A stretch of DNA of 64,000 bases from a virus (Duplodnaviria > Heunggongvirae > Uroviricota > Caudoviricetes > Crassvirales). A program made the translations under genes and the position numbers. Within the stretch, counting starts at the first letter, position 1. The number at the start of each line of letters is the position of its first letter. The stretch is taken from positions 1-64,000 of IMG/VR virus record IMGVR_UViG_3300032053_000036, one strand, 5' to 3'. Positions 7,292-62,686 of this stretch are shown here, piece after piece. The notes beneath the pieces are model-generated. The model was not told the DNA's origin. It searched no databases and was given only the letters and a program-made list of their open reading frames with translations.

Positions 7292-7440
7292 GTTATTGCT
7301 ATATATTTTGTTTGAATAATTGTTTCTGAGTATTGTAATTTATTGGTCTTAAGGGCTAAGTGAGTATACTGCACTCTGTTTATCAATGAGTTATGAATAT
7401 TCCCACCCAAATGAGCCACGTACATTGCTCCCACCCTTAT

Positions 7441-7475
7441 ATACGAAAAAGAAAGAGGGACAAAGTCCCCCTTTC
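7441..7475 (-). terminator. Strong rho-independent terminator after the GC-rich gene.
   Basis: Minus-strand hairpin GAAAGGGGGAC-TTT-GTCCCTCTTTC (11-bp stem) followed by TTTTTCGTAT, 18 nt past the stop. Confidence 0.6.
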
Positions 7476-7492
7476 GAGAATTGCGTCAGCAA

Positions 7493-7930: not shown

Positions 7931-8151
7931 CTTTTTGAATGTTTTAGTGAAAAAATGATTAAAAATGTAGCGTGGTGGGGGATTACCCCAACACCCTTTG
8001 CGTAGGCTGGGGTGCCAATATGGAGTAGTCTCTTCTCCTATAGATATAGTATGCCTACCATTTTAGAAAAAATTTTATTTTTTTGTAACAAGAATATTCC
8101 TGACCTTTGAAGGGTGGAGGGTGGGAATAGATCTTCCTTAATACATAAACG

Positions 8152-8403
8152 ATGATTATACCTTTATTGCTTATTACGTTAATCACTTTTATAGCCTATC
8201 CTATTATATTTGGATTAAGGGATGCTATGTTTGTTGATTTTATATTAGAGGTGAAAATCCTATCTAGTCAGTATTATACATTTGGTATGTGGTTTATACA
8301 GCATGATGTAGAAGATCCTGAATATATAGAGCAGGAATTTACAATTGCTCTGTTTTTATTCTCTATGTCCCTAGTGTTTTATAAGCATAAAGACGATGCA
8401 TAA
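8152..8403 (+). CDS. Small membrane protein (83 aa).
   Basis: Hydrophobic N-terminus IIPLLLITLITFIAYPIIFGL. It is the first gene of the rightward array. Confidence 0.4.
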   Translation: MIIPLLLITLITFIAYPIIFGLRDAMFVDFILEVKILSSQYYTFGMWFIQHDVEDPEYIEQEFTIALFLFSMSLVFYKHKDDA

Positions 8404-10553: not shown

Positions 10554-10886
10554 ATGGCAGCAGTAAAAAAAACTACATACATCAACACAGAGCTCGAATG
10601 GGCTGAGACACAACTCAAATCATGGAAGCAATATGTTGATGCCAATCCACTTCACGAACTGAAGGATAGGATTGAATGGAAACCTACATCTAAAGGAGGA
10701 CTACTTCCTATGGTGATAGCCTCTATAGAAGCTCAAGGTAAGTTTGTCCAAGAGACAATGAAGAACTATCTTGCACTGGTAGAAGTGGTGGACAAGCTGA
10801 GAAGCTTAGAAGAAGCAAAAGTTGAGGTGAGAGGGAAGGGAGATCTTTCAGGAATAGCTGAAGACTTCCTTAAAAACAGAAGATAA
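10554..10886 (+). CDS. Hypothetical protein directly upstream of TerL (110 aa). A small terminase subunit is possible but not supported by any motif.
   Basis: Position only. It shares the N-terminal MA(A/T)VKK with the preceding gene. Confidence 0.3.
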   Translation: MAAVKKTTYINTELEWAETQLKSWKQYVDANPLHELKDRIEWKPTSKGGLLPMVIASIEAQGKFVQETMKNYLALVEVVDKLRSLEEAKVEVRGKGDLSGIAEDFLKNRR

Positions 10887-17417: not shown

Positions 17418-18977
17418 ATGGCAATTCAAACAATCCCAGGCTTAACTGGTTTTACGTATGCGAGAGTAGCCTCTATGGATAAGCGTGCTGTGGGTAAGCT
17501 CACTGACTCGAATCACTTAGAGAGCTTTCACAGCACTGAACCTGCTGACTATGACAAAAAGATCATTAGTCTTTACACTCAGAGCTCATTGTATAGCAAT
17601 GACTTCTTAGACATGATTAACAAAAGCACACCTTATTACATCGATAATAATAGTGATGCTTGGAAATGGCAAGTAGCTGTTCCCTACAAATTCCCTAAGA
17701 TTATCAATGTTCCAGAAGCAACTGCTGCTTTGGATAAAATTGGTATCGATGGTCAAGAGTTCACTCTTGTTTTGGACACTAATGAATTCTCTAAGAACGC
17801 AATCGTTTCTGTGGGTTCTCGTCAGTATGGTCCTCGTTTCTATGTAATCAAAGATCCAGTTCCTTGGAACATGGGTTACTTGTATTCTTTCAATTTGGTG
17901 ACTGACAATCCAACTGTTGACTACATTTCTTCAGGTTCTCAATTCTTACAAGTAGGTGTTGAGCTTGAATTAGTTGATGCTGCAATTGGTGAGTTTGATC
18001 AAGACTTATTAGGTCTTCCTCGTTTGGGTGAGCAAATCACAATGTTTGAATCTTTAGGTTCTGCATATGGTTATGAGCACAAAATCACTGAGTGGGCTGA
18101 TGACAAGATGATGGTTGATTCAAAAGGAAATCCTTTAGATATTTTGGTATATGCTCCTCAGCGTAGAAACCAACTTCCTTTAACTCGTAATGATGTTAAG
18201 TGGGAACCATTCATTGAGTTCTGGATGCGTAAAAGCATGTTGGAATTGAAAGTTAAGCGTATGATCTGGTCTAAACCAGGTACAGTTAAAACTGGTGGTG
18301 GCAAGCAAGAATTAAAGCGTACATCTGCTGGTGTTTACCACAGAATGCGTAACAATGGTAACTTGGTACAATACAATCGTGGTGAATTCTCTGCTAACTT
18401 GATCAGAAGCGTGTTTGGAGATTTGTTCTACAGACGTGTGGATGTTAAAGATCGTAAGGTTAAAATGTACACAAATGAAGCTGGATTTGACGTATTCCAA
18501 CAAGCTTTGAAGGCTGACGCTTTAAACAGTGGCTTGACTTTCATGGCTGATTCTGGAAATCGTTACATGCAGGGAGAAGGTCAACACATCACTTATAACT
18601 TTGCATTCGATGCAATGGTTACACGTGAAACAGGTCGTGTTGAACTTATTCACTTGAAAGAACTTGATTTGCCACAATCTAACTTAGAGTTTGGTCAAAA
18701 CAAGAAAAGCACTCCAGTGTTTATGGTATTTGATGTTAGTCCTATGAGCGATGGTTCAATGGTTAACAACATCAGAGAAGTGAGAATGAAAGGTGCTCCT
18801 TCTATGACTTGGGGTTATATCGATGGTACTCGTCACCACTTAGGTTTTGCTAAGTCTCAAGGTATGAGTTCTGCGAACAAATTCCCAGGTTATGAAATCT
18901 GGATGAAAGATCGTTGTGATGTATTCATTGAAGATTTGTCTCGTACAGTCTTGATTGAAGAGATTCCACAATTGTAA
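17418..18977 (+). CDS. Major capsid protein (519 aa, HK97-fold candidate).
   Basis: Position after the scaffold, size, strong start context (aaacaac..ATGGCA), and a terminator immediately downstream. Confidence 0.55.
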   Translation: MAIQTIPGLTGFTYARVASMDKRAVGKLTDSNHLESFHSTEPADYDKKIISLYTQSSLYSNDFLDMINKSTPYYIDNNSDAWKWQVAVPYKFPKIINVPEATAALDKIGIDGQEFTLVLDTNEFSKNAIVSVGSRQYGPRFYVIKDPVPWNMGYLYSFNLVTDNPTVDYISSGSQFLQVGVELELVDAAIGEFDQDLLGLPRLGEQITMFESLGSAYGYEHKITEWADDKMMVDSKGNPLDILVYAPQRRNQLPLTRNDVKWEPFIEFWMRKSMLELKVKRMIWSKPGTVKTGGGKQELKRTSAGVYHRMRNNGNLVQYNRGEFSANLIRSVFGDLFYRRVDVKDRKVKMYTNEAGFDVFQQALKADALNSGLTFMADSGNRYMQGEGQHITYNFAFDAMVTRETGRVELIHLKELDLPQSNLEFGQNKKSTPVFMVFDVSPMSDGSMVNNIREVRMKGAPSMTWGYIDGTRHHLGFAKSQGMSSANKFPGYEIWMKDRCDVFIEDLSRTVLIEEIPQL

Positions 18978-39027: not shown

Positions 39028-39909
39028 ATGTCAAAAGTAATAACCATAAAATTAACAAAGGCAGGATCAAGAACTGGTCCTTTTGATGTAACAGATAACT
39101 TTGGTGACGTCTTAGGAACTTCTGTTCCTAAGAGTTCTCTTATTGCAGGGCTTACAGTTACAATAGATGATGGTGTATCTGTTATAATAATAAAGTCTGT
39201 AAAGGGATGTGGTACAAACTGCGAGGTGGAAATAAGAATTCCTATTACACAGCTTACAATATTAGATGTTGTAGGACTTACGTTCACCAATACAAACACT
39301 GCATCACTCTGGAGACATCTTACAAACCCAAGGATATACAACTACTATTATAATACAATATATCCTTACATAATAGAATATCCTTTTACATATCAGTTCA
39401 ATGATGAAATCTTACAGAATGTAAAAGACTACACTAAGGCATATCAATATCTTGACATGCCTGATGGTGTATGGAATTACAATAATAGAATTGAGACAGA
39501 TGATGTTTGGTTTAACAAAGCTGTTCTATATAATGGTCAGCAGTCTTCTGGTGTGTTAGAACTTGTTCCTAAACCATTACGTAATCTCAGTGAATACATG
39601 AAATATCCTATTTACAACACTGATAGTAAAACAATCACTTACACAAAGAGTGATAACTTCTATCAATACAATACATTCTGGTCTTTGGTGAAAGACAAAA
39701 GAACACCTATGTTTGTAACAGACTGTTGTTCAACTCTCTCCTTGGATAAATTAGTGAACCAACCAAACATGGACTATGGAAAAAGATCATTTAAGAAGGA
39801 ACCTCTAAGAGCAAAAGAATTAAAAGTAAGACACATATTAGATAATCGCTCAGATGCACATTTAACTAGTCAGTTCATTGTGACTCCAGCACAAATCTCT
39901 TATAAATAA
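39028..39909 (+). CDS. Tail accessory protein (293 aa) whose N-terminal module is shared with 25746..26915.
   Basis: MSKVITIKLTKAGSRTGPFDVTD versus MTVTITLTIAGADTGPFLLFSD. Confidence 0.45.
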   Translation: MSKVITIKLTKAGSRTGPFDVTDNFGDVLGTSVPKSSLIAGLTVTIDDGVSVIIIKSVKGCGTNCEVEIRIPITQLTILDVVGLTFTNTNTASLWRHLTNPRIYNYYYNTIYPYIIEYPFTYQFNDEILQNVKDYTKAYQYLDMPDGVWNYNNRIETDDVWFNKAVLYNGQQSSGVLELVPKPLRNLSEYMKYPIYNTDSKTITYTKSDNFYQYNTFWSLVKDKRTPMFVTDCCSTLSLDKLVNQPNMDYGKRSFKKEPLRAKELKVRHILDNRSDAHLTSQFIVTPAQISYK

Positions 39910-49477: not shown

Positions 49478-52400
49478 ATGCCAATTTTTGATAAAGAGCT
49501 TATAGATAATATTTCTAATAGAGAAAATGTACTTCCTAATATGCCACTTGGTTCTCCTGTTACAAGGGAACTTAATACTGACATGGGAGGATATGGACTT
49601 GAAACTGATTCAAAAGGAGGATTGACAATTGATCAATTATCAAATATTAAAGCTAGTAATAGTACAGGATTTGATTCTCCTTTTCAAATGATTCCTAAGA
49701 GTGAACTCTTGTCAAATCAAAGATACTCAATGTATGAAAGAGACAAAGATCTTGAAAATACATATGGGTTACAACAAGGAGCATTGTCACAGCTTGGTAA
49801 TGGTGTTGTTAAAATGGCTGCTACACTTGGTGGAACATTCTTACAGGGGTTTGCAACTATTCCTAATACAATCGCTTCTTTCAAAGGAGGAGTTAAAGAA
49901 CTATCTGGTGTTGAAGGATATGAATCTGATATAGATAATTGGTTAAAGAACATAGAAGATAGATTCCCAAACTATGTAACAAAAAAAGAACAAGAACATC
50001 CTTTCTTAGCAGCTATTCCTGGATTTGCAGGAAGTGCTAATTTCTGGGGAGATAAGATTATTAAAAACATTGGTTTTACAGTGGGTGCTATTGGCAGTGC
50101 CTTAGTACAAGATGCTGTTGTGGGATTTGCTACAGAGGGTCTTGGAGAGATTCCATTAGTTGCAAATCAAATTGGTAAAGCTTCACTATATTTAAATAAA
50201 CTTTTTACAGGAACAAACGATATTGAAAAAACATTACAGATTGCAACATCTTTAGGAAAGAGTGAAAAGGCAATGTTGAATATAAAAAGACTTGGAGAAC
50301 TTGCTGCTGCTGAAAAAGTAAGTAATGGGTTTAGATATGGATTGAATATATACAGTTCTGCAAGAACAGAAGCTGCTATTGAGGCTAGAGATGGATATAG
50401 ACAAGTTAAAGAAATATTAACCACTCAATACAAAGAAGGAAATTTAGGAGAAGAACCTTCAGGAAAAGATCTTACAGACATTGAACAATATGCAACAGAT
50501 GCTATGAATACTAGATTTGGTATTAACATGGCTATCCTTACAGTGAGTAATGCTTTTCAATTTGATAATCTATTTAAGTCTGTTAGTAATGGAGCTACTA
50601 CAAAAGGTGTAGGTTCAGGACTTATAAAAGATATTCAAGATGCTGGTAAGGTAGGTCTTAAGGAAGGATCTTTAGATGTATTTGAGAAGAAACTTCCAAC
50701 AAGCTTTATGGGTAAAGTTTGGGAAAGTGTTAAGCCTAAAACAGCAAGTATATTCAGAGAGGGTGTATATGAAGAAGGTGGACAGTATGCTGCTGAGCGT
50801 GGTACATATGATTATTATACAAGAAAGTATAAAGATCCAAAAAGAAGAGAAAGTATAGATAACTGGAATACACTAAATGAAGTTATAGATTCTACAGTTA
50901 AGGGTCTTAATGATCAGTTTGGTACCACTGAGGGTATAGAGAATATGTTGATTGGTGGTATATCAGGAATGTTGATGGATGCAGGAATGCAAACATATGA
51001 TAGAGCTAAAGGTAAAGGAAAAGATAAGAGATTGGACACTGCAGTGAGTCTACTTAATAGATATGGTCTTACAGGAATTCTTGGTCAAAAATATACAGAT
51101 ACATTAAACTCTGTAAACATTGCACAGGAAATGACTAAAGCTGCTAGAACAGGTAATGTGTTTAGATATCAAAATCTAAAAGATGACATGTTCTTTGGAT
51201 TTGTTAATTCTAGACTTGGATCTAACATGCACGATGTAACCATTGAGCAGTTAAGAATGTTGAAAGATCTTGATAAGGAGGAGTTTGAAAAAACCTTTGG
51301 AATGAACTTCAGTGAATCAAACAAATCTACTGTTGGTGAATATGTTGATGGATTGATAAGTAAAGCAAATGAAATAAAGAAAATCTCTGATTCTGTAAAT
51401 AATACATACAAGAATGTTTTCACTTTCTATGATGATCCTGGAGATGATCAAGATAAAAAAGAAAGTAATAAAAACTACAACACATTTGAGACCTGGAAAA
51501 CAAACCTCATCTATGAAGGTAGTGTTATGAAAAACACAAACCAGAGATTGGTTGATGTACAACAATCTCTTAGTAAGATAAATCCCCTTATAACAAATGA
51601 TCTTGCTAGTAGATTGATGGATGAAGATTCTCTTAGAGAACTTAGTCAAGATTATGAAGAACAAGCCAAAACACTTCTTGGTACATTGAATGATGCTATG
51701 TCATTTGATGAGAGAAGAAAAGTTAAAGAGCAGGCTAAACAATTACGTACAGCATCAGAGATAGCAATGATGGCTGCTAATGATGGACAAATTTCGCAGA
51801 AAGATTTTGCAAAAATTCTTAATTATGAATTAAATGGTAGAGATGGCTCTAAAGATGATGTTGTCACTATAGATAGAGTTAACGACATTCAAACATTAGG
51901 ACACGATATCAATATGATTAATGCTAGAAAGAAAGATGCATCTAATGCGTTTGAAATTCTTTCTAGTGAAAAAGGTTTTGAAAAGTTTTTCAAAGATGAA
52001 AACGATATTGCAGCAGCAGCAGAAAAAGCAGCCTTTGATAGAGAGGAGGTTAAGAAAAGACCTCTTCCAGAATTTACAAATGTTGGAGGTGTAAAAGAAG
52101 CAATACAACTTGAAAGAGAATACCAAGCTCAACCTAAGAAAGGATCTAAGGTTAGAAAACTTGCTGCAGATAGATTTAGAGTTATAGATCCTGATGGTAA
52201 GGTGACATTCTACCCAACTAGAGAAAAGGCTCAAGAGGCAGCTGCTGATATTGATCTTAGATACACTGAGCTCTCAAAGATTAAAATACTTGCTGTTAAT
52301 GCTGATGGTACAATTAAAGTGCAAGATGTTAAAGGTAACATCCAAAACATTGGATTAGGAGAACTTGAAGGATATGAAAAGATAATCACTGAGCAAGAAA

Positions 52401-55400
52401 GACTACAACAGTTTGCTGATCAGATGAAACAAGATCAAGAAGATATAGAAAAATCTTCTGGTGTAGTGGGTACAAATCCTTCTGATGAAGAGACTGTTGT
52501 ATGGGAAGATAAAAAAAGAGATATCTCTCATTTATTCAATGGAGGAATTACAGAATCTGAGAGATGGGAGAATCCTGAAGGATCTCCTATTCATATTCAG
52601 AACTCTAGATATTTCTTAAACAATGCAAGAAACTTTCCTAATAGAGCAAACCTTAGAGCAATTCTTATTCCTGCTACACATGAGGCAGCGTTTGGTTTAG
52701 CAGGACTTACAGCCATCTCTTATAAATCAGAAGAGAAAGATCCAACTAAAATTCCTGGTGCCACTGATCCTAAAACAGGATTCATAGCTCAGGTATTTGT
52801 TGAACAAGATGGATCAGATGTTTACTTTGTAGACAAAGAAGGAAATAGAATTGGTAAGCTTGGAGAAGCTATAGATATTGAAAAGGTTATATTCCAAGCT
52901 ATGCCTGCAGCATCATTAGAATATAGTGATGGTAGTCCAAGATATAGAAATAGTCAGGCAGCAGACGCTGAAGTTTATAAGAAGGCGTGGGAAATAAAAA
53001 GAGAAAGATTATTTGGTGCAACTCCTGGTACATATCAACTTTATACATTCAAGATATCAAGAGGTATAGCAAGAGAGATTAAGATAGATGGTAAACTTGA
53101 AAGAAATCCTATATCAGATATTCTTGTTGACATGAATCTAATTCCTACACAGGAAGGACTAATACAGATATCAACAACAGGAAACCTTGCTCACCAGGGA
53201 GAACAATTAAACTTTCCTAAAGGAAGACCTATTCTTCAATTTGAAGATGTATTTGTTCCTTTGAACAATAGAAAGTTTACAGCAAATGAGGCTGAAACAA
53301 TATTTGAACTTCTCAACAGGATTGGTAAAGAAACAGTTAGACAGTCAAAGCTTCCTGGAGGTCCTGCAATAAGAACTAATAGAAGGTATGCTAGATTCTT
53401 ACAAGGATTGTTGTTCTGGAAATCAGACATCACTGGAAAGAAGAATCCTAACAACATGTACATCAATGAGAAAGAAGGTAATCTCTATCTTGGTGGAGTA
53501 GCTTATGATCTTACAAATCTTGAAGCAAGTAAAACTGCTATAGTAGATCATCTTAAAGCAACATATAATAATATAAACAATAGTCATCTAACTGAAACGT
53601 TCAGTGAACCATTTGTTGAATACAGAATGGAGAATGGAAACCTTGTAGAAGTTGAATGGCAAAACTATCAAACATACCTTTTATCAAAAGAAAATCCTGA
53701 TGGTTCTTCTAGAGGAATAGAGAACATCCCATTAGTTACATCTGTTCAAAAAGCAACAAATACATTACAACCTTTTGAACAAAAGTATGCTATCATGGAA
53801 GACCTTGAACTTCCTATAGCAGAAGTACCAAAGCCTGAAACAAAAGTTTCTACAGATGGTAGTGGAGCTGTTGAAGTTGATGGATTTAAAATAGATGGTT
53901 CAGTACAAATCTATAGAGAATTTAATGCTGGTCCAGTTGAATTTACAGCCACATTAGATAAAGATGGTTTTATAGAAACAGACGTTAAAGATGGTGATAC
54001 AGTCAATGCTCTTGCAGGTAGCGAGAAGACAATGAATGATGTAATCATTGCAACTCTAAAAGCTCTAGGTAAACTAGATGAAAAAGCTCTTGAGGCTAAT
54101 GATAATGTAAGACTTGTAAAAGATTTCTTAGGACTTAAGATAGCAGTGGATCTTCAGGCTAAATTAGATGCTGCAAAAACAAAACCAACATCTACAGCAC
54201 CAAAAGCTTCTGCTCCTATTGAGATAAGTTCTAATGCTAAAGGATTTGGAGCTGTTCTTACAAACCCTACAGAGATTGCTAGTAGTAAGAAGAACGTAAC
54301 CAATGTAGTAAATATTAAGAAGACATATGGTGATAAGTATAAAATCTTAAAAAGATTTGTAATAGGAAGAGGAATTGTTGATGTATCAGTAACAGATACA
54401 ACAAATGCTGCCTATCCTATAGAATTTGAAGGTCAGTTATATGCAGACGCTGAAGCAGCATATCAAGATCAAAAAACTAAGTATTCAAATAAGACCAAGT
54501 CTGCAGGATCTACGTATGATCTTATGGTGAAGATTCTTACAGCTAAGCTTCAACAATATCCTCAGATGATTGATGAGATTAAGAAACAAGGTGGTACACC
54601 ATGGTTATCAAAGGCTGTACATCAACCTACTAATAAGAATAGTGTATGGGAAACAGGTGGTCAGAACTGGTTTGTATTAAGCTTAGTTGATGCATATACG
54701 AAAGTTCTTCCTACAACTCCTGAAAAAAAGGATGATGATAAGAAGGAACCACCAACACCCCCTCCCCCTCCTGCTCCTTCAGGACCTGCTCCAACAGTAA
54801 CATTTGAGGGAGAAGATACTCCTGATGATGCATTCAGAAAGCTCTCTAAAGGAAAAGAAAGATCTTGGAGAACTACACAAGGAGATATTGAGATATTCAA
54901 GAAATGGGTTGCTGAAAATGCTCCAGGGATCCCTTATGAGATTCTTGAACAAATGATTGATACATATGATGGAGAGAAAGCTTGGGGTGTATACGAAAAT
55001 GGTATAGCTAAGTTTTTCAAAGGTGGATTAAGAGGTACAGAATACCATGAGGTATTTGAAGCTATATGGAAACATTTCCTTACAGACTCTGAGAAACAAG
55101 CAATTATTGATGAGTTTAGAACAAAAGCTGGGAAGTTTACAGATAGAGAATCTGGAAAGAAGTTTAACTATGATGATTCTAGTGTAACTGATAAGATGAT
55201 TAAAGAAAGAATTGCTGATGACTTTGCTGATTTTAGATTGGGTAAAATACCTGCTACATCTCTTGGTGGAAAGATTATGCAATTCTTCAAAAGGATTATA
55301 GACTTTATTAAATCTTTCTTATTCAAACCAGATCTTAAAACAAAACTGTTCCAACAAATAGATACAGGAAGATTCAAAACAGCTACACTACAGATTACAA

Positions 55401-58400
55401 AAGAAGATGTAGAAAATACATTCAGAGATAACTTAGAACTTGAAAACCAAGTTGTAGAAACTATTGAAGATAATAGTCCAGAAGCTGCTAAAATGCTTTA
55501 TACAAAATATATAAAGAGTGTTCAGTCTAGAGGAAGTGAAACTGACATGGATAAGTTTAGACAGTGGGCTAAGAACTATGGAATTCCTGAATACAGTAGA
55601 GCTGGTATACTTACAGAAACTCAAACACATCAGTTTGTACAAGATCTTACAGCAAGAGCTGCAGGAATTATATTCAATGAGAATGATGTACAAGCTTTAT
55701 ATGAGCCTGCTAAACTAACTAGTGTTGAACTATTCACTAAGATTGCTAATCAAAAAGATATGGTTAGCAAGAAGGCTAAGATGGGTGAAGAAACATGGAA
55801 CGCACTTATTGTAAAAACAAAAGAACAATTACGTACCCTTGGTATAGACTTTACTGAGGAAGATAGAGTGAGTGTGAATGATTCAGAAAAAACAAATAGA
55901 GATTATGCTCCTGAGCCATTTGCAACAGACTGGAAAAAGTATTCATACTTTCCAATAAAGATTCTTCTTGCAACATTGATTGAGACAGAACCAATGAATC
56001 AATCAACTTCTACAGAATTAAAGATGCCTAATGCAAAGTTTTCATCTGAAGCAAGAGGATTATCTCTTGTAAACTTTAGTAGAACCTTTGCTACACTAAT
56101 GGATAGATTGAGCAATACGACTGATGTTGATGAGTTTATTGCTAAACTTACAGAACTTGCAAAAGAAGATAGCAAATTTGTTAGATTGTTTGTAAGACTT
56201 GGAGGAGGAACAGATTGGAAAATAGATTTTAGTCAAGCTAAATATAAGTCTGCCAATTGGAGATTGTTTACACAGTTCTATCAAACTTTCACAAAACAAA
56301 ATCCTGATGCAATAGCTCAGTACATAAATGATACACAGGTTTATTCTGGATCTGCAGCTCTCACAGGAGCATCAAATATGATAAAGAAAGAGTGGGTAGA
56401 AAATATTAAAGCTCTCTCTAAGAAATCTGATTCGTTAATAACGTACGAATCAGGTAGTAGAACATATAAAGTAAAAAACATTTCAGAAATTCCTATTAAG
56501 GAACTAGATGATCAAATTGAATTTCTAAAAAAGATGGGCGTATTATTTGATAAAGATGCCTATCTAGGATTGAACACTACAGATAGAAATAGATTTGGTA
56601 GAGCTGTAAGTAACATACATGCTTTCCTTCAGAAGGCAAATGATATATTCTCTGTTACATCTAAGACATTGAATATCGAAGGTCATCTAAATACATTGTC
56701 TGAACTGTACGTTAAGTCTACTAATCCCAATCAAGATACTACGCATTTTAATATTGATGGTAATAGAACAAACTCATTTGCTGAGAACAATGCACCTTCA
56801 GTGTTTGAGAATGAATTTAATGAATCAAAGACAATTCAAGAGCTTCTTAAGAAGAGACCTGACATGAATGATGTGTTTTCAAAACATTCTATTCTTTTAC
56901 AATTAGGAGGTCCTTTCTGGACTAAAGATGGTAAACGTACAGCTCGTCAATTAAAGATTGGTTATATAGGTGGGACAATTAATGTAAATAAAAACAAGGG
57001 TGTTTCTACACAAAGATTAAATATTGGTACACGTTTTACACAAGAGATAAACCAAAACCTTGCTGGTAACTATTACATTCTTGTTCCTGCAGATAGCTCT
57101 ACAGAGTGGATGATGAACCTTGGAAACAACATATCGTTTGTTGATATAGATAGTGAGAATGGTAAATCTGCATGGAAGAAGATAAACAGTATATTCAGAG
57201 GATATTTGATAGATGAAGTTGCTCTTGCTCTTGATTATAAGAATAGAGAGAAGCTTCGTAACATTAGTGCAAAGAGAGTTAAGCAACTTAGATTCTTCAA
57301 AGAAATTCTTAGCGACTCTCTTCTTACAAAGATTCATAACATGATCTTAGATAAGAAATCGCTAACAGAAATTACAGCTGAAATAGATAGTAACATAGGG
57401 GAAGTAAATACATCTATAAAAGAATTTATAGAAAGAACAACTAAAGAAACAAGAGGAAATCTTGAGAAAACAGGAAAGATTAAAGTGGTTGATGAAAACA
57501 ATTTCTCATACGCTGAACTTGATAATGACTTTACTGATGATGAGAATGTTAGCATCAACAAATTCAAAATGTCAGATGAGCTTGTAAACAATGTATTATT
57601 GTTTGCTAATGCTAACTACATCATCAATAACATTGAACTTCATAAAATAATCTTTGGTGATCCTTATCAGTTTGAAGAGAAAACTAAGAATGGTAAAACT
57701 TTATTGGATGAAACTAAACGTATCAAATCTTTCCTTTCTCCAAGAAGAACAACTTTTGATCATGCTGCATTTAGATCTTTCTTAAATAATGAATATAATA
57801 AGACAGGTCTTCCTGAAGAAACAGGCAGGATACAATTAAAACCATCTGATCCAGGTTATCATACAGCAAAGCGTTATTTAAGAACAATCACTGCTAGTGA
57901 TGTAAATATTATAGGTAGAGTTTTAGGTAAGGCTAAAGAGACAGATGGTATGTCTTGGTTAACAATTGATGGGTACAGAGAAATCAAACAAAGAAATGGT
58001 CAATGGTCAAATGATGCTGAAACATGGTATCAGTGGCAGATGGCATACATGAGAAATAAAATGGCTGAAAAGGGTGATTATACATATGACAACCCTGCTC
58101 TTGAAAAACACGATAGTGATCTGATTAAGAAAAAAGAACCAGTATACAAGCTTGATGTTCTTAAGCCTATTGTTACAGGGTCTAAATACAATAAGAATAA
58201 TATAGATCTTGTTCTTGATAAATTTTCTCAGATGCCTATGTATTACAAGGCTGTAGAAGGAAGGACTCTTGAGAAACTTCTTGTTAAAATGTTTAACGAA
58301 AAGATAGACTATCTTATTGTACAAAGTGGTAGAAAAGTTGGTGCTGAGTCTTTACACGATCTTTATAATCCAGGTGGAACTTTTAATCAAGAGGTGTTCA

Positions 58401-61400
58401 CAGATCCAATAGATATTTCTTGGAAGACATATGGTATACAAGTTGAGAATGCTAACGAAGGATCTGGTGGACAACAAACAATGGGATCACAGGTTACAAA
58501 GATTGTAACAATGGATCTTTTTGAGAATGGAGAAGCTGTTTCAAAACAAGGGGCTATTCTTTATAAAAAGTACAATACAATTCTTACAAACATTTTTACC
58601 AATGGTTATGAAAGATTATTAAAAGATCTTGGTATAGAAGACCTTGGATTTTCATTCAAGCTTATAAACAATGATTCTATTGCTAACACTCTTAGACAAG
58701 AGATGCTTAGAAGAGAACTTCCTGAGAACGCTAAAGACACTTTGCAATTAAAAGATGGAGAATTCCCTTTACCTTTTGAAGCATCATCTTCATACAAGCA
58801 AATAAAAGATATTCTTTATTCTATGGTGAATAAAGCAATTATTTCTCCAAGAATGAATGGTGGTGGTTATGTACAGGTTCCTGTAACAATGTGGGAGAAT
58901 GCTAAAGAAGGAAGACGTGTTGGTGTAAAAGAAAATGGAAAATCAAGGATTGTAACAAGCGAAGAATTTAAAAATCTTTCTCCAGAGATACAAGAAACAG
59001 CATTTTTTACAGATGATACATTAAGTTTCTATAGCAAAGATAAACCTTATTGTGAAATATTATTACCCCATTGGTTTAAAGATAAGTTTGAAGGAACGCA
59101 GTATGATACAGATGAGAAGATATTAAAGTATCTGAATGATTCTGAAGAAGGAAAAGAGATATTGAAAGGTATAGCTTTTCGTATTCCTACACAATTGCAA
59201 TCGTCTATTGAAGCAGTTGTTATAAAAGGATTCTTACCACAATCTATGGGTAAGACAGTAGTTGTTCCTTCAGAGATTGTTACAAAAGCTGGATCTGATT
59301 TTGATATAGATAAGCTTAACATGTATCTAAAGTCTGTATATATGGATGCTGATGGAGAAATTCGTCTTGCTAGATTTATGCAAGATGAAGCATCTACAAG
59401 AGAATTTTATGGAGATGTATTTGATGAAACAATTGGTAGAGAGATTGAGAAGCTTGAGAAATATGAAGGCTTTAGAGAAAAGATTGTAAGTATATTTGAA
59501 ACAATTGAATCATTAGAGGTAGTAGATACTGACTCTATTCAAAACAAGTTATCAGAGGAAGACTATAATTTCTACAAATTACATAACAAATTACTTTCTG
59601 AAATTGTAAACCAAGCAGCAGAGAAGGACATGAACCCTTCATCCTATATTAAGGAACAAATAAAAGCTCTTGGAGAAAAGAAAGAAAGTCTGATAGCAAA
59701 ACAATTGAATCAGACTCTTAGAGAAAATTATGTAGAAGACATGTACAGACGTGCTCTTGAGAATGAGTATTATGATACAATGTATAAAATAATTACACTT
59801 CCAGAAAACCTTGAGAGATTACTTTCTCCTGTAGATGATGATGGATTGAGTGAACTTGCTGATGAATTAGATGAACTTAGGGGATATGATGAGTCTAATA
59901 TTAAGAATAGAATTCTTGATAGAAACTATATGACTACATTAAGACATGCGTTTGTATCTGCTAAAAGATGGATTGGTATAGCTGCTGTAAACATTACAGG
60001 ACATTCACTTTATCAAAAAACTAAAGTGTATATTGATCCTGAGATGTTTGAAAATGTTAGCAAGGCTGATCAAAAGATTCTTGGTGATGGATTTATAGCA
60101 TTAGATCATAATACAGTTGATATAAATGGTAACAAATACATATCTCTTTCAGGAAGAAAGGATAGTGCTGGAAGATTTATATCAAATGGATTGTCTGGTT
60201 TTGCTACAACATTTGTGGATGTAGCTAGAGATCCATACATCATGAAGATTATTAAGAATGAAATGGTTGTAGGAACATTCATGTTTGCTAGAAGGATTGG
60301 TATATCTAGAGAAGACATTGTAATGTTTATGAACCAACCTATAATAGATGCATATCTTACAATGCTTGATAACTCTGGAGATAAGAGTTTATTCAAGGAT
60401 GCTAATATTATAGCAACAAGAATGCAGTTTCCTGCAGGTGGTGAACAAGGTGTTATTGATGTTAATAATTTTAGAGGGGCTATAAAAGAATACTACCAAG
60501 GAAAACTTTCAGATAAACAGAATGCTGATCAACAGGAAATATTTACACAATTCTTAAGACTGGCAAAGATGGCTGACTATTCATATAGAATGAGTCAGGC
60601 TGTAAACTATGACACTACAAGATTTAAAAGTGGTGATTCTCTTTTCCAAAAACAAGTGAGAACACAGCTTGCAAGAGAGGCTAACATAATTAACTCTGTA
60701 GATAACATCCTTAACAATTCACACATAGGTCACCAGGAACTTCTATTAGATTATTCTATGGAAGCTTTAGGAGAGATTATGAAATTAGAAAGAGATGACT
60801 TCAGGGAGATTACAGATGAGCTTCTTAGGAGACATGCTGAGAACTTTTACATGAGTGCTGATGATTATGAGAGGATAGCAATTAGAATCAAAGCTTCTTT
60901 CTTAGACTACATCATTCAGACTAAATCAAACATTGCTAGTAATATCAGTCGTTTATTAGTTGAGGGAGGGGATGTTCTTGTAGATAGACTTGCAGTATTA
61001 AAAGTAAAATATCCTAACTTACAGATTCTCAAGGATTTAGTTCCTGCCACTTCAATAAGAATTGATGGTGCTAAATCTATAGAACTCAAAGCAAACTTAA
61101 AAGATGCTTATGATGAGAATCTATATACAGGAATGATGAGAGAACTTAGAGATAGTGGTAACCTAGAACTAAATGAATTCTATCATGATCTTGTAACACT
61201 TTCCATCTTGCAGGGAACATTACAATCTCCTATATCTATCAAGAATATCATTCCAATAGAAGACTATTCAGCACAGATAAAAGATATAATTGCTCCTCTT
61301 ACAGTGGATGAAGATGTGAGAAACTTCAACAAAGGTGCATTCCAAAGGAACAACTGGAAGAATGATGATGTGTTTGAAGAATACGAACCTAGATTTTTCC

Positions 61401-62686
61401 AATCTGAAGAGCCTGTCGATATAGATCCTTACACAATGGAGGACATCTATGAATATTTCTCATATTCATTCCAACAAAACAAGAAATTAAATCTTGGAAG
61501 AAACCAAAGAATGCTTATGTTTGTAAGCGAAAATTCATACGCAGCTCAAAGTGATTATTTGAAAGTGAGAAGAACAATACAACAAAAAGATAAGGATGGT
61601 AAACCTGTTCAATCTTGGGTTGATTTGAGATCAGGAGTTAACATATTTGCTGCAGATTTTGTTGTTAGAAAGAAAAGAGGAGACCTTGCTTTACAAGACT
61701 ACTATGGTTATGAGAGAGTTACATATGAAGATGGAACACCATTGACAATAACTAACTCAAAAGGATATACAAGTTATATATACAAACTTATAAATCTTTT
61801 GGGTGATGGAATGTATGCTTCTGAATACTATCTTGATAGAAGACCTTCAGCAATGAATAATGGTACAGTGAAAGTGGAGAAAGAACTTACTAATGGTGAA
61901 ATCATACAAGCATTTACAGAAAGAACAGAGAAAGCAAACACAGACACTTCTTCTCCAACATCTTTAGCTAATACAATAACGTCTACAGAAACTAATATTG
62001 ATGCACTAAGAGCAGAAGAAAAAGCTGCACTAGATGTTCTTGATTTTGTTAAAGCTAGAGAGATTAGAGATAGGATTGATGCACTTTCTACAAGTACTGA
62101 AAGAGAATACACTCCTGAAAAACTTACAAAAGCAAACATGCCTGCAAATGGAATATTTGTATTTGGAAGTAATACAGAAGGTAGACATGGTAAAGGTGCT
62201 GCTGAAGATGCTAAAGATATGTTTGGTGCTATACAAGGACAAGCTGAAGGATTACAAGGAAAGTCTTATGCTATTATAACAAAAGACTTATCAAAAGGGA
62301 AAAGAAGTGTTCCTTTATATTCAATGGATGATACTTCAATTGCTTATGGAATTAAGAGATTTATGGAATATGCAAATTCTCATCCTGAACTTAAATTCTA
62401 TGTTACTAAGTTAGGATCTAGTCTTGCTGGATATTCTATAGAAGAAATAAAAGATATATTTAATTCTATTAACACCTTATATGCATATGAAGGAATTCAA
62501 AATTATATACCTAATAATGTAATTCTTCCTAGAGAATATGAGGTAAGATTAGAGAAAAAACCTGCAACTGAATTAAAACTTAGAGATGGTTTGATGTATC
62601 AATCTGCTGATATCAATGGAACAATGCTTGAGAATATGGGATATAGTCCTTTGGAAATTGCTGAAATTTTAAAACAAATTTGTTAA
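49478..62686 (+). CDS. Giant multidomain virion protein (4402 aa). It has RNAP-like DPBB catalytic-loop similarity with DFDID, an internal NADAR-like domain, a Pro-rich linker and a C-terminal LOG/DprA-like Rossmann domain.
   Basis: RIPTQLQSSIEAVVIKGFLPQSMGKTVVVPSEIVTKAGSDFDIDKLNMY resembles the beta-prime RQPSLHRMSIQAF...AFNADFDGDQMAVH loop. NADAR-like motifs are PIEFEGQLYADAEAAYQDQK and SVWETGGQNWFVLSLV. The C-terminus has GIFVFGSNTEGRHGKGAA and GSSLAGYSIEEI. Confidence 0.65.
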   Translation: MPIFDKELIDNISNRENVLPNMPLGSPVTRELNTDMGGYGLETDSKGGLTIDQLSNIKASNSTGFDSPFQMIPKSELLSNQRYSMYERDKDLENTYGLQQGALSQLGNGVVKMAATLGGTFLQGFATIPNTIASFKGGVKELSGVEGYESDIDNWLKNIEDRFPNYVTKKEQEHPFLAAIPGFAGSANFWGDKIIKNIGFTVGAIGSALVQDAVVGFATEGLGEIPLVANQIGKASLYLNKLFTGTNDIEKTLQIATSLGKSEKAMLNIKRLGELAAAEKVSNGFRYGLNIYSSARTEAAIEARDGYRQVKEILTTQYKEGNLGEEPSGKDLTDIEQYATDAMNTRFGINMAILTVSNAFQFDNLFKSVSNGATTKGVGSGLIKDIQDAGKVGLKEGSLDVFEKKLPTSFMGKVWESVKPKTASIFREGVYEEGGQYAAERGTYDYYTRKYKDPKRRESIDNWNTLNEVIDSTVKGLNDQFGTTEGIENMLIGGISGMLMDAGMQTYDRAKGKGKDKRLDTAVSLLNRYGLTGILGQKYTDTLNSVNIAQEMTKAARTGNVFRYQNLKDDMFFGFVNSRLGSNMHDVTIEQLRMLKDLDKEEFEKTFGMNFSESNKSTVGEYVDGLISKANEIKKISDSVNNTYKNVFTFYDDPGDDQDKKESNKNYNTFETWKTNLIYEGSVMKNTNQRLVDVQQSLSKINPLITNDLASRLMDEDSLRELSQDYEEQAKTLLGTLNDAMSFDERRKVKEQAKQLRTASEIAMMAANDGQISQKDFAKILNYELNGRDGSKDDVVTIDRVNDIQTLGHDINMINARKKDASNAFEILSSEKGFEKFFKDENDIAAAAEKAAFDREEVKKRPLPEFTNVGGVKEAIQLEREYQAQPKKGSKVRKLAADRFRVIDPDGKVTFYPTREKAQEAAADIDLRYTELSKIKILAVNADGTIKVQDVKGNIQNIGLGELEGYEKIITEQERLQQFADQMKQDQEDIEKSSGVVGTNPSDEETVVWEDKKRDISHLFNGGITESERWENPEGSPIHIQNSRYFLNNARNFPNRANLRAILIPATHEAAFGLAGLTAISYKSEEKDPTKIPGATDPKTGFIAQVFVEQDGSDVYFVDKEGNRIGKLGEAIDIEKVIFQAMPAASLEYSDGSPRYRNSQAADAEVYKKAWEIKRERLFGATPGTYQLYTFKISRGIAREIKIDGKLERNPISDILVDMNLIPTQEGLIQISTTGNLAHQGEQLNFPKGRPILQFEDVFVPLNNRKFTANEAETIFELLNRIGKETVRQSKLPGGPAIRTNRRYARFLQGLLFWKSDITGKKNPNNMYINEKEGNLYLGGVAYDLTNLEASKTAIVDHLKATYNNINNSHLTETFSEPFVEYRMENGNLVEVEWQNYQTYLLSKENPDGSSRGIENIPLVTSVQKATNTLQPFEQKYAIMEDLELPIAEVPKPETKVSTDGSGAVEVDGFKIDGSVQIYREFNAGPVEFTATLDKDGFIETDVKDGDTVNALAGSEKTMNDVIIATLKALGKLDEKALEANDNVRLVKDFLGLKIAVDLQAKLDAAKTKPTSTAPKASAPIEISSNAKGFGAVLTNPTEIASSKKNVTNVVNIKKTYGDKYKILKRFVIGRGIVDVSVTDTTNAAYPIEFEGQLYADAEAAYQDQKTKYSNKTKSAGSTYDLMVKILTAKLQQYPQMIDEIKKQGGTPWLSKAVHQPTNKNSVWETGGQNWFVLSLVDAYTKVLPTTPEKKDDDKKEPPTPPPPPAPSGPAPTVTFEGEDTPDDAFRKLSKGKERSWRTTQGDIEIFKKWVAENAPGIPYEILEQMIDTYDGEKAWGVYENGIAKFFKGGLRGTEYHEVFEAIWKHFLTDSEKQAIIDEFRTKAGKFTDRESGKKFNYDDSSVTDKMIKERIADDFADFRLGKIPATSLGGKIMQFFKRIIDFIKSFLFKPDLKTKLFQQIDTGRFKTATLQITKEDVENTFRDNLELENQVVETIEDNSPEAAKMLYTKYIKSVQSRGSETDMDKFRQWAKNYGIPEYSRAGILTETQTHQFVQDLTARAAGIIFNENDVQALYEPAKLTSVELFTKIANQKDMVSKKAKMGEETWNALIVKTKEQLRTLGIDFTEEDRVSVNDSEKTNRDYAPEPFATDWKKYSYFPIKILLATLIETEPMNQSTSTELKMPNAKFSSEARGLSLVNFSRTFATLMDRLSNTTDVDEFIAKLTELAKEDSKFVRLFVRLGGGTDWKIDFSQAKYKSANWRLFTQFYQTFTKQNPDAIAQYINDTQVYSGSAALTGASNMIKKEWVENIKALSKKSDSLITYESGSRTYKVKNISEIPIKELDDQIEFLKKMGVLFDKDAYLGLNTTDRNRFGRAVSNIHAFLQKANDIFSVTSKTLNIEGHLNTLSELYVKSTNPNQDTTHFNIDGNRTNSFAENNAPSVFENEFNESKTIQELLKKRPDMNDVFSKHSILLQLGGPFWTKDGKRTARQLKIGYIGGTINVNKNKGVSTQRLNIGTRFTQEINQNLAGNYYILVPADSSTEWMMNLGNNISFVDIDSENGKSAWKKINSIFRGYLIDEVALALDYKNREKLRNISAKRVKQLRFFKEILSDSLLTKIHNMILDKKSLTEITAEIDSNIGEVNTSIKEFIERTTKETRGNLEKTGKIKVVDENNFSYAELDNDFTDDENVSINKFKMSDELVNNVLLFANANYIINNIELHKIIFGDPYQFEEKTKNGKTLLDETKRIKSFLSPRRTTFDHAAFRSFLNNEYNKTGLPEETGRIQLKPSDPGYHTAKRYLRTITASDVNIIGRVLGKAKETDGMSWLTIDGYREIKQRNGQWSNDAETWYQWQMAYMRNKMAEKGDYTYDNPALEKHDSDLIKKKEPVYKLDVLKPIVTGSKYNKNNIDLVLDKFSQMPMYYKAVEGRTLEKLLVKMFNEKIDYLIVQSGRKVGAESLHDLYNPGGTFNQEVFTDPIDISWKTYGIQVENANEGSGGQQTMGSQVTKIVTMDLFENGEAVSKQGAILYKKYNTILTNIFTNGYERLLKDLGIEDLGFSFKLINNDSIANTLRQEMLRRELPENAKDTLQLKDGEFPLPFEASSSYKQIKDILYSMVNKAIISPRMNGGGYVQVPVTMWENAKEGRRVGVKENGKSRIVTSEEFKNLSPEIQETAFFTDDTLSFYSKDKPYCEILLPHWFKDKFEGTQYDTDEKILKYLNDSEEGKEILKGIAFRIPTQLQSSIEAVVIKGFLPQSMGKTVVVPSEIVTKAGSDFDIDKLNMYLKSVYMDADGEIRLARFMQDEASTREFYGDVFDETIGREIEKLEKYEGFREKIVSIFETIESLEVVDTDSIQNKLSEEDYNFYKLHNKLLSEIVNQAAEKDMNPSSYIKEQIKALGEKKESLIAKQLNQTLRENYVEDMYRRALENEYYDTMYKIITLPENLERLLSPVDDDGLSELADELDELRGYDESNIKNRILDRNYMTTLRHAFVSAKRWIGIAAVNITGHSLYQKTKVYIDPEMFENVSKADQKILGDGFIALDHNTVDINGNKYISLSGRKDSAGRFISNGLSGFATTFVDVARDPYIMKIIKNEMVVGTFMFARRIGISREDIVMFMNQPIIDAYLTMLDNSGDKSLFKDANIIATRMQFPAGGEQGVIDVNNFRGAIKEYYQGKLSDKQNADQQEIFTQFLRLAKMADYSYRMSQAVNYDTTRFKSGDSLFQKQVRTQLAREANIINSVDNILNNSHIGHQELLLDYSMEALGEIMKLERDDFREITDELLRRHAENFYMSADDYERIAIRIKASFLDYIIQTKSNIASNISRLLVEGGDVLVDRLAVLKVKYPNLQILKDLVPATSIRIDGAKSIELKANLKDAYDENLYTGMMRELRDSGNLELNEFYHDLVTLSILQGTLQSPISIKNIIPIEDYSAQIKDIIAPLTVDEDVRNFNKGAFQRNNWKNDDVFEEYEPRFFQSEEPVDIDPYTMEDIYEYFSYSFQQNKKLNLGRNQRMLMFVSENSYAAQSDYLKVRRTIQQKDKDGKPVQSWVDLRSGVNIFAADFVVRKKRGDLALQDYYGYERVTYEDGTPLTITNSKGYTSYIYKLINLLGDGMYASEYYLDRRPSAMNNGTVKVEKELTNGEIIQAFTERTEKANTDTSSPTSLANTITSTETNIDALRAEEKAALDVLDFVKAREIRDRIDALSTSTEREYTPEKLTKANMPANGIFVFGSNTEGRHGKGAAEDAKDMFGAIQGQAEGLQGKSYAIITKDLSKGKRSVPLYSMDDTSIAYGIKRFMEYANSHPELKFYVTKLGSSLAGYSIEEIKDIFNSINTLYAYEGIQNYIPNNVILPREYEVRLEKKPATELKLRDGLMYQSADINGTMLENMGYSPLEIAEILKQIC

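Follow-up and report, generated by a model that had tools for sequence, protein, structure and literature searches.

A giant ORF of a divergent crAss-like phage carries a new member of the phi14:2 gp66 family of RNA polymerases with isoleucine in its predicted catalytic loop

Introduction

Cellulophaga phage phi14:2, a member of the crAss-like group, has a gene for a DNA-dependent RNA polymerase (RNAP) with two barrels in a single chain, gp66, which is packaged in the virion and to which the rifampicin-resistant early phi14:2 transcripts have been attributed. Each single aspartate-to-alanine change in the DFDID motif of gp66 abolishes Mg-dependent transcription (Drobysheva et al., bioRxiv 10.1101/2020.03.07.982082, later in Nature). 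All previously studied RNAPs possess a glycine at the fourth position of this motif, and in all crAss-like phages the position is reported to be occupied by isoleucine or valine (bioRxiv 10.1101/2020.03.07.982082). In the gp66 crystal (PDB 6VR4) the DFDID loop adopts a conformation that is unable to bind Mg2+, and its refolding is needed for activity (bioRxiv 10.1101/2020.03.07.982082). Fused polyproteins are already known. RNAP-associated cargo proteins have been detected in crAss001 virions (Bayfield et al., Nature 2023, PMC10172136).

Here, we describe a computational analysis of a 64,000-nucleotide stretch of DNA (the window; positions 1 to 64,000 of virus record IMGVR_UViG_3300032053_000036). 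An original prediction, made from the sequence of the window, had recognized an RNAP beta-prime-like catalytic loop at 59170-59320 in which isoleucine replaces the usual glycine, and had proposed that it represents either a variant active site or an inactivated or regulatory barrel. The evidence presented below places the RNAP of this giant ORF in the phi14:2 gp66 family as a new and divergent member, rather than as a new kind of active site.

Results

The DFDID motif and its upstream element

The RNAP module is housed in a 4,402-residue ORF identified from the ORF list and its translation (Table 1). The predicted span encodes residues 3231-3281 (GIAFRIPTQLQSSIEAVVIKGFLPQSMGKTVVVPSEIVTKAGSDFDIDKLN), within which positions 59297-59311 (gat ttt gat ata gat) are read in frame as DFDID. 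Numbered from the ATG of the ORF, the three aspartates are D3274, D3276 and D3278, and the codon ata does specify isoleucine (I3277) in place of the usual glycine of DxDGD. The sequence of the loop, the numbering of its aspartates and the presence of the upstream R-x-P-[ST]-x-x-x-x-S-I motif were as predicted, and the comparison with beta' holds. In a manual alignment with residues 424-472 of E. coli beta' (NRAPTLHRLGIQAF...YNADFDGDQMAVH; sequence verified), R-x-P-T-x-x-x-x-[GS]-I and DFDxD are common to both proteins, the spacing between R-x-P and DFDxD being four residues longer in the giant protein. At the position aligned with the upstream element, gp66 reads R-I-P-N-Q-G-Q-S-S-N.

DFDID is the sole DxDxD within the 4,402 residues, and a six-frame search of the window found no other D[FYWLIVM]DxD inside an ORF; the one further occurrence in the window, DVDSD near 40078, lies on the minus strand opposite plus-strand genes. 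A true DxDGD elsewhere, which would have marked the match as spurious, was not found: DxDGD has no occurrence anywhere in the window, and glycine was never seen at position 4 among the approximately 215 homologues examined.

Table 1. Features of the giant ORF and its RNAP module
Feature	Residues	Position	Strand	Remarks
Giant ORF	4,402 aa	49478..62686	+	Predicted virion cargo polyprotein of crAss-like phage
N-terminal module	80-838	49715..51991	+	Separate gene product in other phages
Lineage-specific insertion 1	1580-1775	54215..54802	+	Ends in proline-rich stretch PPTPPPPPAPSGPAP
Two-barrel RNAP core	2676-3623	57503..60346	+	Sequence homology to phi14:2 gp66 832-1654
First (beta-like) double-psi beta-barrel	~2900-2983	58175..58426	+	Putative limits; precedes Connector equivalent
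S-G-R-K-V-G, in beta-like barrel	K2953	58325-58342	+	K2953 in 42/42 ungapped rows
gp66/QDE-1 Connector equivalent	2984-3131	58427..58870	+	Mapped from gp66 1095-1238 via BLASTP alignment
G-S-Q-x-T-K, in Connector equivalent	G3003, Q3005, K3008	58484-58501	+	The three residues nearly invariant
Second (beta'-like) double-psi beta-barrel	~3132-3290	58871..59347	+	Bears catalytic loop
R-I-P-T-Q-L-Q-S-S-I	from R3235	59180..59209	+	Counterpart of E. coli beta' R-A-P-T-L-H-R-L-G-I
Catalytic loop	D3274-F-D3276-I3277-D3278-K3279	59297..59314	+	Predicted Mg2+-binding aspartate triad; aligned with gp66 1361-DFDID-1365
Bridge-helix equivalent	3481-3514	59918..60019	+	gp66 1529-1559 maps to 3481-3511 (BLASTP alignment)
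Trigger-loop equivalent	3568-3605	60179..60292	+	gp66 trigger loop 1598-1636 mapped; conserved F-V-D-V-A-R-D-P-Y
Lineage-specific insertion 2	4167-4361	61976..62560	+	Bears A1S_2505-family N-terminal domain
A1S_2505-family N-terminal domain		about 62153-62539	+	NCBIfam NF049995, E 1.4e-33, 115 bits (cutoff 45)

Relationship to phi14:2 gp66

Alignment with a Crassvirales virion RNAP, proposed together with the original prediction, paired the two motifs directly: BLASTP matched approximately 950 residues of the giant protein (2676-3623) to gp66 832-1654 with an E value of 1e-30 and placed DFDID opposite DFDID. A phmmer search of the PDB returned gp66 (6VR4) as its sole match (E 8.5e-19), and the identity of the two proteins is approximately 24%. 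Sequence similarity thus spans the two-barrel core, the gp66 position 1361-1365 is occupied by a DFD[I/V]D motif, and the architecture is gp66-like, comprising two double-psi beta-barrels, a connector, a bridge helix and a trigger loop. The D-[FY]-D-G-D motif of the wider two-barrel superfamily, with its glycine at position 4, is replaced here by one bearing Ile3277. The absence of glycine at this position is a signature of the crAss-type subfamily.

The family has 3,743 representatives at E<=1e-3. A tblastn search of 50,697 phage records matched 130; all 40 of these 130 that were listed belong to crAss-like phages or unclassified phage contigs from faecal metagenomes, frequently with an annotation as putative RNA polymerase. 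A blastn search of the same 50,697 records with positions 57500-61500 gave no match. Comparison of the whole giant protein with Pfam and PHROGs detected no RNAP family, returning only a sub-threshold UVR motif and a C-terminal match to PHROG 2072, and Pfam searches of six sub-segments yielded nothing significant. No similarity in sequence or fold to the T7-like, single-subunit N4-type virion RNAP of Schitoviridae (N4 mini-vRNAP / T7 RNAP palm-fingers-thumb) was found.

Conservation of the predicted catalytic site

The three aspartates and the lysine that follows them are kept in approximately 215 homologues covering the site. In an alignment of 44 homologues, D3274, D3276, D3278, K3279, R3235 and P3237 are invariant (44/44), and conservation is 90% or more at I3236, Q3239 and S3243. 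The first search gave 71 homologues spanning the site, with isoleucine at position 4 in 67 (65 DFDID, 2 DYDID), valine in 3 and phenylalanine in 1. Among the proteins newly returned by a second search, limited to the best 150 50%-identity representatives, 142 span the site, and in these the residue is isoleucine (117), valine (23) or phenylalanine (2). Phenylalanine is therefore also tolerated, which adds a data point to the family. One homologue, P0143, also contains a DFDGD that is unrelated to its true site and lies 385 residues downstream of it.

RNAP core elements in a structure model

A structure model, also proposed with the original prediction, was obtained for the RNAP region with a pLDDT of 85.4, and the three-aspartate loop is carried on a double-psi beta-barrel. 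Confidence is lowest at D3274-D3276, where pLDDT falls below 50. The bridge helix and trigger loop mapped from gp66 coincide with elements of the model, which contains a single long helix at residues 3482-3514, and within the trigger loop FVDNAKDPY of gp66 aligns with FVDVARDPY. Beta strands are modelled at residues 2897-2988, in the region of the beta-like barrel. The basic residues K2953 (SGRKVG) and K3008 (GSQxTK), candidate counterparts of the beta-subunit lysines, are nearly invariant in the sequence alignment.

A counterpart of the N-terminal Cleft-blocking domain of gp66, which fills the hybrid-binding cleft and touches the DFDID motif, was sought in residues 1776-2700. Comparison of an 18-sequence family alignment with gp66 by hhalign gave nothing significant, the model of this region was poor (pLDDT 59.5), Foldseek found no match at E<=0.001, and a second homologue search returned 6 proteins only.

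Organization of the giant ORF

The RNAP module forms the C-terminal half of a predicted cargo polyprotein. Relatives are likewise single ORFs, of 3,655-4,746 residues with one DFDID apiece, and the 144 representatives newly returned by the second search have a median length of 4,124 residues. In this clade, to which the present ORF adds a data point, giant fusions (4-5.6 thousand residues) are the norm. The N-terminal module matches residues 70-810 of a 1,552-residue protein of Leptolyngbya phage Lbo-JY46 (E 7e-52) and, weakly, residues 65-398 of phi14:2 gp078 (E 9e-5), the product of the gene immediately upstream of the phi14:2 RNAP gene.

Two insertions are lineage-specific. Insertion 1, whose last residues (1755-1775) form the proline-rich stretch, has no BLAST match (E<=1e-4) in the ORFs of 19 relatives, 2 of which lack that part of the protein; it interrupts the alignment to the giant ORF of L001 and matches nothing in Pfam, NCBIfam or the PDB. 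It may serve to link modules or as a site of cleavage. A NADAR-like domain suspected by eye at residues ~1584-1745 gained no support from sequence searches of Pfam (E<=10), NCBIfam and the PDB and was rejected. PF08719 is present in one relative, P0056. Insertion 2 is missing from the giant ORFs of all 19 relatives and, in addition to bearing the A1S_2505-family domain, matches PHROG 2072, of unknown function, with an E value of 1.6e-30. Accessory domains are inserted in some family members, a further data point for the family. The zincin protease motif HExxH (compare phi14:2 gp65) occurs neither in the giant ORF nor in the protein encoded downstream of the L001 giant ORF, which is without significant similarity to gp65.

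Genomic setting

The giant ORF lies in a crAss-like virion and cargo gene block, with terminase and portal encoded upstream on the same strand and virion structural proteins encoded directly upstream. The major capsid protein matches Pfam Crass_capsid (93.6 bits; cutoff 27) and the muzzle protein matches crAss_MUZ (116 bits; cutoff 27). Capsid and terminase are nearer to an unclassified cyanophage (Lbo-JY46) than to classified Crassvirales, and extrapolation from phi14:2 biology therefore spans a large evolutionary distance. At the syntenic position Lbo-JY46 encodes the N-terminal module as its own gene, followed by an unrelated 2,748-residue protein that showed no relationship to the PDB or to an RNAP profile. 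No RNAP module was detected in the examined part of the genome of the nearest cultured phage. An exact search for contigs that encode the giant protein yielded none on record, although its sequence is present in the protein collection. Scans of the window for tRNAs and Rfam families returned nothing.

Discussion

We conclude, with a probability of roughly 0.9, that the segment encodes the catalytic loop, binding Mg2+, of a crAss-type virion RNAP, a single-chain, two-barrel, DNA-dependent enzyme of the phi14:2 gp66 family. The isoleucine in place of the universal glycine is not a defect but the usual condition in this family, in which it is conserved. By analogy with gp66 and crAss001, the protein would be a late product that enters the capsid by packaging, and the polyprotein would be ejected into the host before or along with the DNA. 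The RNAP, which may be excised from the polyprotein, would then transcribe early phage genes independently of the rifampicin-sensitive RNAP of the host. The catalytic Mg2+ is predicted to be bound by D3274, D3276 and D3278, which sit on the beta'-like barrel's loop; the rest of the active centre would be supplied by the beta-like barrel together with the bridge helix and the trigger loop. Since isoleucine accompanies the non-Mg2+-binding loop in the gp66 crystal, it may belong to an off/on switch built into the enzyme. Homology, fold, conservation and genomic setting are shown here, whereas activity, packaging, timing and the switch are extrapolated from gp66 and crAss001.

The same crystal conformation lends some weight to the other half of the original prediction, that the change from glycine to isoleucine locks the loop in a metal-free state and the protein serves solely as a structural or ejection component, as do the minimum in model confidence at D3274-D3276 and the fusion of the ORF to a non-polymerase N-terminal module. 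This reading is extremely unlikely, however: gp66, with an identical DFDID, is an active RNAP that is inactivated by each single aspartate-to-alanine change, and bridge-helix and trigger-loop equivalents are retained. Furthermore, an aspartate triad, lysine and upstream arginine and proline that are invariant in 44/44 homologues, in a motif kept in approximately 215 divergent proteins, would not be expected of a dead site. The two possibilities of the original prediction have consequently parted: the variant active site is favoured by the catalytic role of DFDID in gp66, the conserved triad and the crAss-like gene setting, and the inactivated barrel is disfavoured.

An active enzyme might also have a main role other than making early mRNA on double-stranded phage DNA, such as QDE-1-like activity on single-stranded DNA or RNA, primer making, or the production of double-stranded or decoy RNA. 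We regard this as highly unlikely, as transcription of the early phi14:2 genes depends on a rifampicin-resistant activity that has been ascribed to gp66, and the position of the present gene within the virion cargo block is the one expected if an early transcriptase is injected. Five-residue acidic motifs do arise by chance, the additional DFDGD of P0143 being an example, and a very long protein might contain a short DxDxD-like motif of no significance; this explanation is negligible, having already been refuted by the phmmer and BLASTP alignments to gp66 and by the conservation of the site.

The change from glycine to isoleucine in an otherwise universal motif is striking, yet it is a documented signature of crAss-like virion RNAPs for which a crystal structure and mutagenesis data exist, and the main value of the finding is therefore as a secure annotation: the 4,402-residue ORF is predicted to encode the early transcriptase injected by a crAss-like phage that is divergent and abundant in the environment. 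The finding neither opens nor closes a long-standing question, and how an isoleucine-bearing loop refolds to bind Mg2+ was a question already posed by the gp66 structure. A more speculative and, in our estimation, rather improbable reading takes the crAss-type RNAP for a cargo module that can be exchanged and has no fixed place in the virion gene block, with the bulky residue at position 4 acting as a conformational latch. This reading rests on the Lbo-JY46-like capsid and terminase, the fusion of the RNAP behind a putative ejection-protein module, the lineage-specific, putatively enzymatic insertions (including the A1S_2505-family domain) and the syntenic contrast with Lbo-JY46. If it is true, the latch (isoleucine, valine or phenylalanine) would keep the metal-binding loop off in the polyprotein until ejection or cleavage, and an abundant unclassified lineage would exhibit exchange of the crAss-type RNAP module.

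Of the described systems, phi14:2 gp66 is alike in its aligned DFDID, the upstream R-I-P-x-Q-x-Q-S-S, a two-barrel core with connector and bridge-helix and trigger-loop equivalents, and the location of its gene, which closes the block of virion genes in a crAss-like genome. It differs in that the identity of ~24% is detectable only over gp66 832-1654, and in that gp66, at 2,180 residues, is half as long and without the two insertions, one with an A1S_2505-family domain, of the giant protein; the N-terminal module fused here is a separate gene in both phi14:2 and Lbo-JY46. The RNAP-associated proteins gp47, gp49 and gp50 of Bacteroides phage crAss001 belong to the same class of very large cargo proteins of the virion, and their genes too lie downstream of the muzzle gene (PMC10172136). 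crAss001-like Bacteroides phages are among the tblastn matches, annotated as putative RNA polymerase; in crAss001, however, the function is spread over three proteins, whereas at least two modules are joined here in one ORF, and the identity is ~23%. The two-barrel polymerases of RNA interference, Neurospora QDE-1 and plant RDR2, are more remote, with an identity of 9-11% and a different biological role, and QDE-1 has the canonical glycine (DYDGD). Finally, the giant protein differs from the beta'/Rpb1 barrel of multisubunit RNAPs, with its NADFDGD loop, in bearing isoleucine for the invariant glycine and in carrying both barrels in one chain.

The catalytic motif and its conservation

The window's longest ORF (49478..62686, plus strand) encodes a giant protein of 4,402 amino acids, and in frame within it the codons gat ttt gat ata gat (59297-59311) specify DFDID, bearing out the original prediction that this sequence replaces the DFDGD of the cellular RNA polymerase (RNAP) catalytic loop. 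The residue numbers assigned to the aspartates (D3274, D3276 and D3278) are exact when counted from the ATG. Nucleotides 59170-59320 encode GIAFRIPTQLQSSIEAVVIKGFLPQSMGKTVVVPSEIVTKAGSDFDIDKLN; the upstream R-x-P-[ST]-x4-S-I motif that had also been described is therefore present too, as R-x-P-T-x4-S-I at 59180-59209. The proposed likeness to the cellular loop is seen in residues 424-472 of E. coli beta' (NRAPTLHRLGIQAF...YNADFDGDQMAVH), which share both the R-x-P-T and the DFDxD elements with the giant protein, although in a manual alignment the spacing between the two is four residues longer in the giant protein. DFDID is the only DxDxD among the 4,402 residues, and a six-frame search of the window showed no DxDGD.

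A word-indexed search returned 74 homologues, mostly database fragments of giant ORFs, with DFDID in 65, DFDVD in three, DYDID in two and DFDFD in one; the remaining three fragments stop short of the site. In a 44-row alignment D3274, D3276, D3278, K3279, R3235 and P3237 are invariant, and position 3277 is Ile in 41 rows, Val in two and Phe in one. An exhaustive phmmer search with aa 3120-3300 against 1.84 billion 50%-identity representatives yielded 3,743 proteins at E<=1e-3. Among the best 150 of these, 144 were newly returned, carrying DFDID (117), DFDVD (23) or DFDFD (2), with the site uncovered in two. Glycine at the fourth position was found in none of the approximately 215 homologues covering the site. 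None of these homologues showed a true DxDGD elsewhere; a DFDGD in one protein (P0143, residue 3633) is a coincidence, lying 385 residues past the aligned DFDID of the same protein at 3248. The variant motifs, with Phe at the fourth position in three relatives and Tyr at the second in two, are carried by homologues P0025, P0066 and P0068 and two phmmer representatives. Phe at the fourth position extends the published "Ile or Val" rule slightly.

At 18 related IMG/VR loci the corresponding ORFs are 3,655-4,746 aa long, each with a single DFDID, and one locus is split. At L018 (IMGVR_UViG_3300033064_000349) the RNAP part is a 2,426-aa ORF beginning close to the first barrel, with DFDID at residue 346; gene splitting, a frameshift from sequencing or recoding could explain this short ORF. 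The giant ORFs occur in the word-indexed database only as pieces of at most 1,568 aa, and in the representative library at full lengths of 3,500-5,650 aa; domain architecture read from the former alone would be misleading. At another relative locus, L001, a gene call of 1,166 aa sits within a 4,025-aa ORF (L001 1424-13501).

Relationship to gp66 and predicted fold

When the whole giant protein was searched by sequence against all PDB chains, the sole entry matched was 6VR4 (E 8.5e-19), the virion-packaged RNAP gp66 of Cellulophaga phage phi14:2, with "...YRIPNQGQSS...TKTGSDFDIDKM" of gp66 opposite "...FRIPTQLQSS...TKAGSDFDIDKL" of the giant protein. Pairwise BLASTP with the gp66 sequence from KC821624 aligned aa 2676-3623 to gp66 832-1654 (E 1e-30, 24% identity). 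No Pfam or PHROGs model detects a polymerase in the giant protein. A tblastn search of 50,697 phage records with the RNAP core matched 130 records at identities of at most 52%, and a nucleotide search of the same records revealed no relative of the RNAP region. The 40 listed of the 130 consist entirely of crAss-like phages and unclassified faecal-metagenome phage contigs, including Bacteroides, Flavobacterium, Cellulophaga and uncultured gut crAss phages, often labelled "putative RNA polymerase".

An AlphaFold model of aa 2650-3750, built from the 44-sequence alignment, had a mean pLDDT of 85.4 and a pTM of 0.81. Foldseek against the PDB placed 6vr4_A at the top (E 6.7e-30); the remaining matches were weak and mostly to RNAP largest subunits. 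The motif lies in the model on a loop linking a short helix to a strand of the barrel, whose strands are aa 3230-3234, 3244-3253, 3260-3263 and 3279-3284. Thus, the homologues and the barrel together produced neither of the observations that the original prediction had named as evidence against it, a true DxDGD elsewhere or a loop outside the barrel. The sole low-confidence point of the barrel is D3274-F-D3276 (window 59297-59305, model residues 625-627; pLDDT <50), a predicted drop that recalls the unusual, non-canonical loop conformation of the gp66 crystal.

Architecture of the giant ORF

The N-terminal region (aa 80-838, window 49715-51991) matches a separate 1,552-aa protein of Leptolyngbya phage Lbo-JY46 (locus L004, 8603-13261; E 7e-52) and, weakly, phi14:2 gp078, the product of the gene upstream of the phi14:2 RNAP (E 9e-5). 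At least two virion/cargo proteins are therefore fused in the giant ORF. Two further segments (Table) have no match in any ORF of 19 relatives. Both are specific to the lineage. The first, aa 1580-1775, sits where the N-terminal modules adjoin the RNAP half, and could serve as a linker or cleavage region; two of the 19 relatives lack the corresponding part of the protein. A NADAR-like domain, suspected at aa ~1640-1745 from the look of the sequence, was supported by no search. The A1S_2505-family domain forms an insertion close to the C-terminus of the RNAP polyprotein and is missing from all 19 related giant ORFs examined; the segment has no PDB sequence match. A zincin motif was looked for in the giant ORF and not found.

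The Lbo-JY46 genome (PP438436.1) has a block syntenic with the window, comprising capsid, exonuclease, muzzle-like and cargo-like genes. Where the RNAP module would stand, after the N-terminal-module gene, it encodes instead a 2,748-aa protein (L004 355-8601; PP438436.1 62354-70600) with no DFDxD, no RNAP-profile similarity and no PDB match, and a crAss-type motif was not detected across Lbo-JY46 positions 1-111,500.

Table. Features of the giant protein and of the genes upstream of its ORF
Feature	Window position	Strand	Giant-protein aa	Remarks
Terminase large subunit	10886-12907	+		Upstream of giant ORF
Portal	12907-15501	+		Upstream of giant ORF
Band_7 (SPFH, PF01145) protein, 176 aa	15501-16031			Between portal and capsid-region genes; so recorded in identical contigs
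Major capsid protein	17418-18977	+		Pfam Crass_capsid, 93.6 bits (cutoff 27)
Tail and virion proteins		+		Upstream of giant ORF
Muzzle homologue, 2,839 aa	30494-39013	+		Pfam crAss_MUZ, 116 bits (cutoff 27)
Three large unannotated ORFs		+		Upstream of giant ORF
Lineage-specific segment	54215-54802		1580-1775	Ends in proline-rich PPTPPPPPAPSGPAP
Bridge-helix equivalent			3481-3511	gp66 1529-1559 via alignment; coincides with one long model helix, 3482-3514
Trigger-loop equivalent			3568-3605	gp66 1598-1636 via alignment
Lineage-specific segment carrying an A1S_2505-family N-terminal domain	61976-62560		4167-4361	NCBIfam NF049995, E 1.4e-33; PHROG 2072

Genomic setting and lineage

The gene order upstream of the giant ORF is that of the crassviruses, in which cargo and RNAP-associated proteins come after the muzzle gene (PMC10172136). 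The Band_7 protein is an unusual item for a head module. A 293-aa ORF (39028-39909) comes after the crAss_MUZ ORF and matches the C-terminal end of the muzzle's PHROG (15100, positions 1588-1781), so the muzzle gene appears split into two ORFs; the same ORF also matches the C-terminal end of a single 1,654-aa Lbo-JY46 protein. Small minus-strand genes occupy 1-7930; they diverge from the long plus-strand virion block at a junction near 7930-8152, and GC skew passes from negative to positive across ~6-10 kb. Scans of the whole window for tRNA genes and Rfam families gave no hits.

Among cultured phages, tblastn with the capsid protein gave a single match, Lbo-JY46 (26%). The terminase is closest to that of Lbo-JY46 (40%), followed by those of Cellulophaga phi4:1/phi17:2 (33%) and then of crAss-like phages (~27-30%). 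These comparisons set the lineage far apart from classified Crassvirales. The 90%-identity cluster that contains the exact capsid protein has 3,829 member sequences, drawn from JGI, ENA, NCBI and Logan assemblies; the phage lineage is thus a common one in public metagenomes, though without a close cultured relative.

Discussion

The giant ORF, with its homology to gp66, the fold of its RNAP module, its invariant catalytic residues and its crassvirus context, encodes an RNAP that joins a known, experimentally characterised family as a new and divergent member. gp66 is a Mg2+-dependent DNA-dependent RNAP to which rifampicin-resistant early transcription has been attributed, and Ala at any one aspartate of its 1361-DFDID-1365 abolishes activity; at the fourth motif position crAss-like phages are all reported to have Ile or Val, where RNAPs studied earlier have Gly (Drobysheva et al., bioRxiv 10.1101/2020.03.07.982082). 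In a 2026 paper such a protein of a Flavobacterium phage was annotated from its "conserved DFDID motif". What the original prediction had noticed is therefore the published hallmark of the gp66 family.

That prediction had left a choice between a true variant active site and an inactivated or regulatory barrel. An inactive catalytic loop is unlikely, as the aspartate triad is invariant in the homologues and the gp66 precedent, with the same DFDID, is active; both observations support a variant active site. A non-canonical, QDE-1-like template role is compatible with the sequence, though improbable.

By analogy with gp66 and crAss001, the giant protein would be packaged as capsid cargo and then ejected, the RNAP might be cut out of the polyprotein, and it would transcribe early genes. 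In the gp66 crystal the motif loop has a shape incompatible with Mg2+ binding, stabilised by the Cleft-blocking domain, and must refold (10.1101/2020.03.07.982082). Likewise, the Ile-containing loop of the giant protein would refold before D3274, D3276 and D3278 bind the catalytic Mg2+; a Cleft-blocking region was sought in aa 1776-2700 and not found. The giant ORF is roughly double gp66 in length, and its fusion is of the kind mentioned in the gp66 literature, in which the RNAP and two neighbours of some phages form one polyprotein that is probably cleaved (10.1101/2020.03.07.982082).
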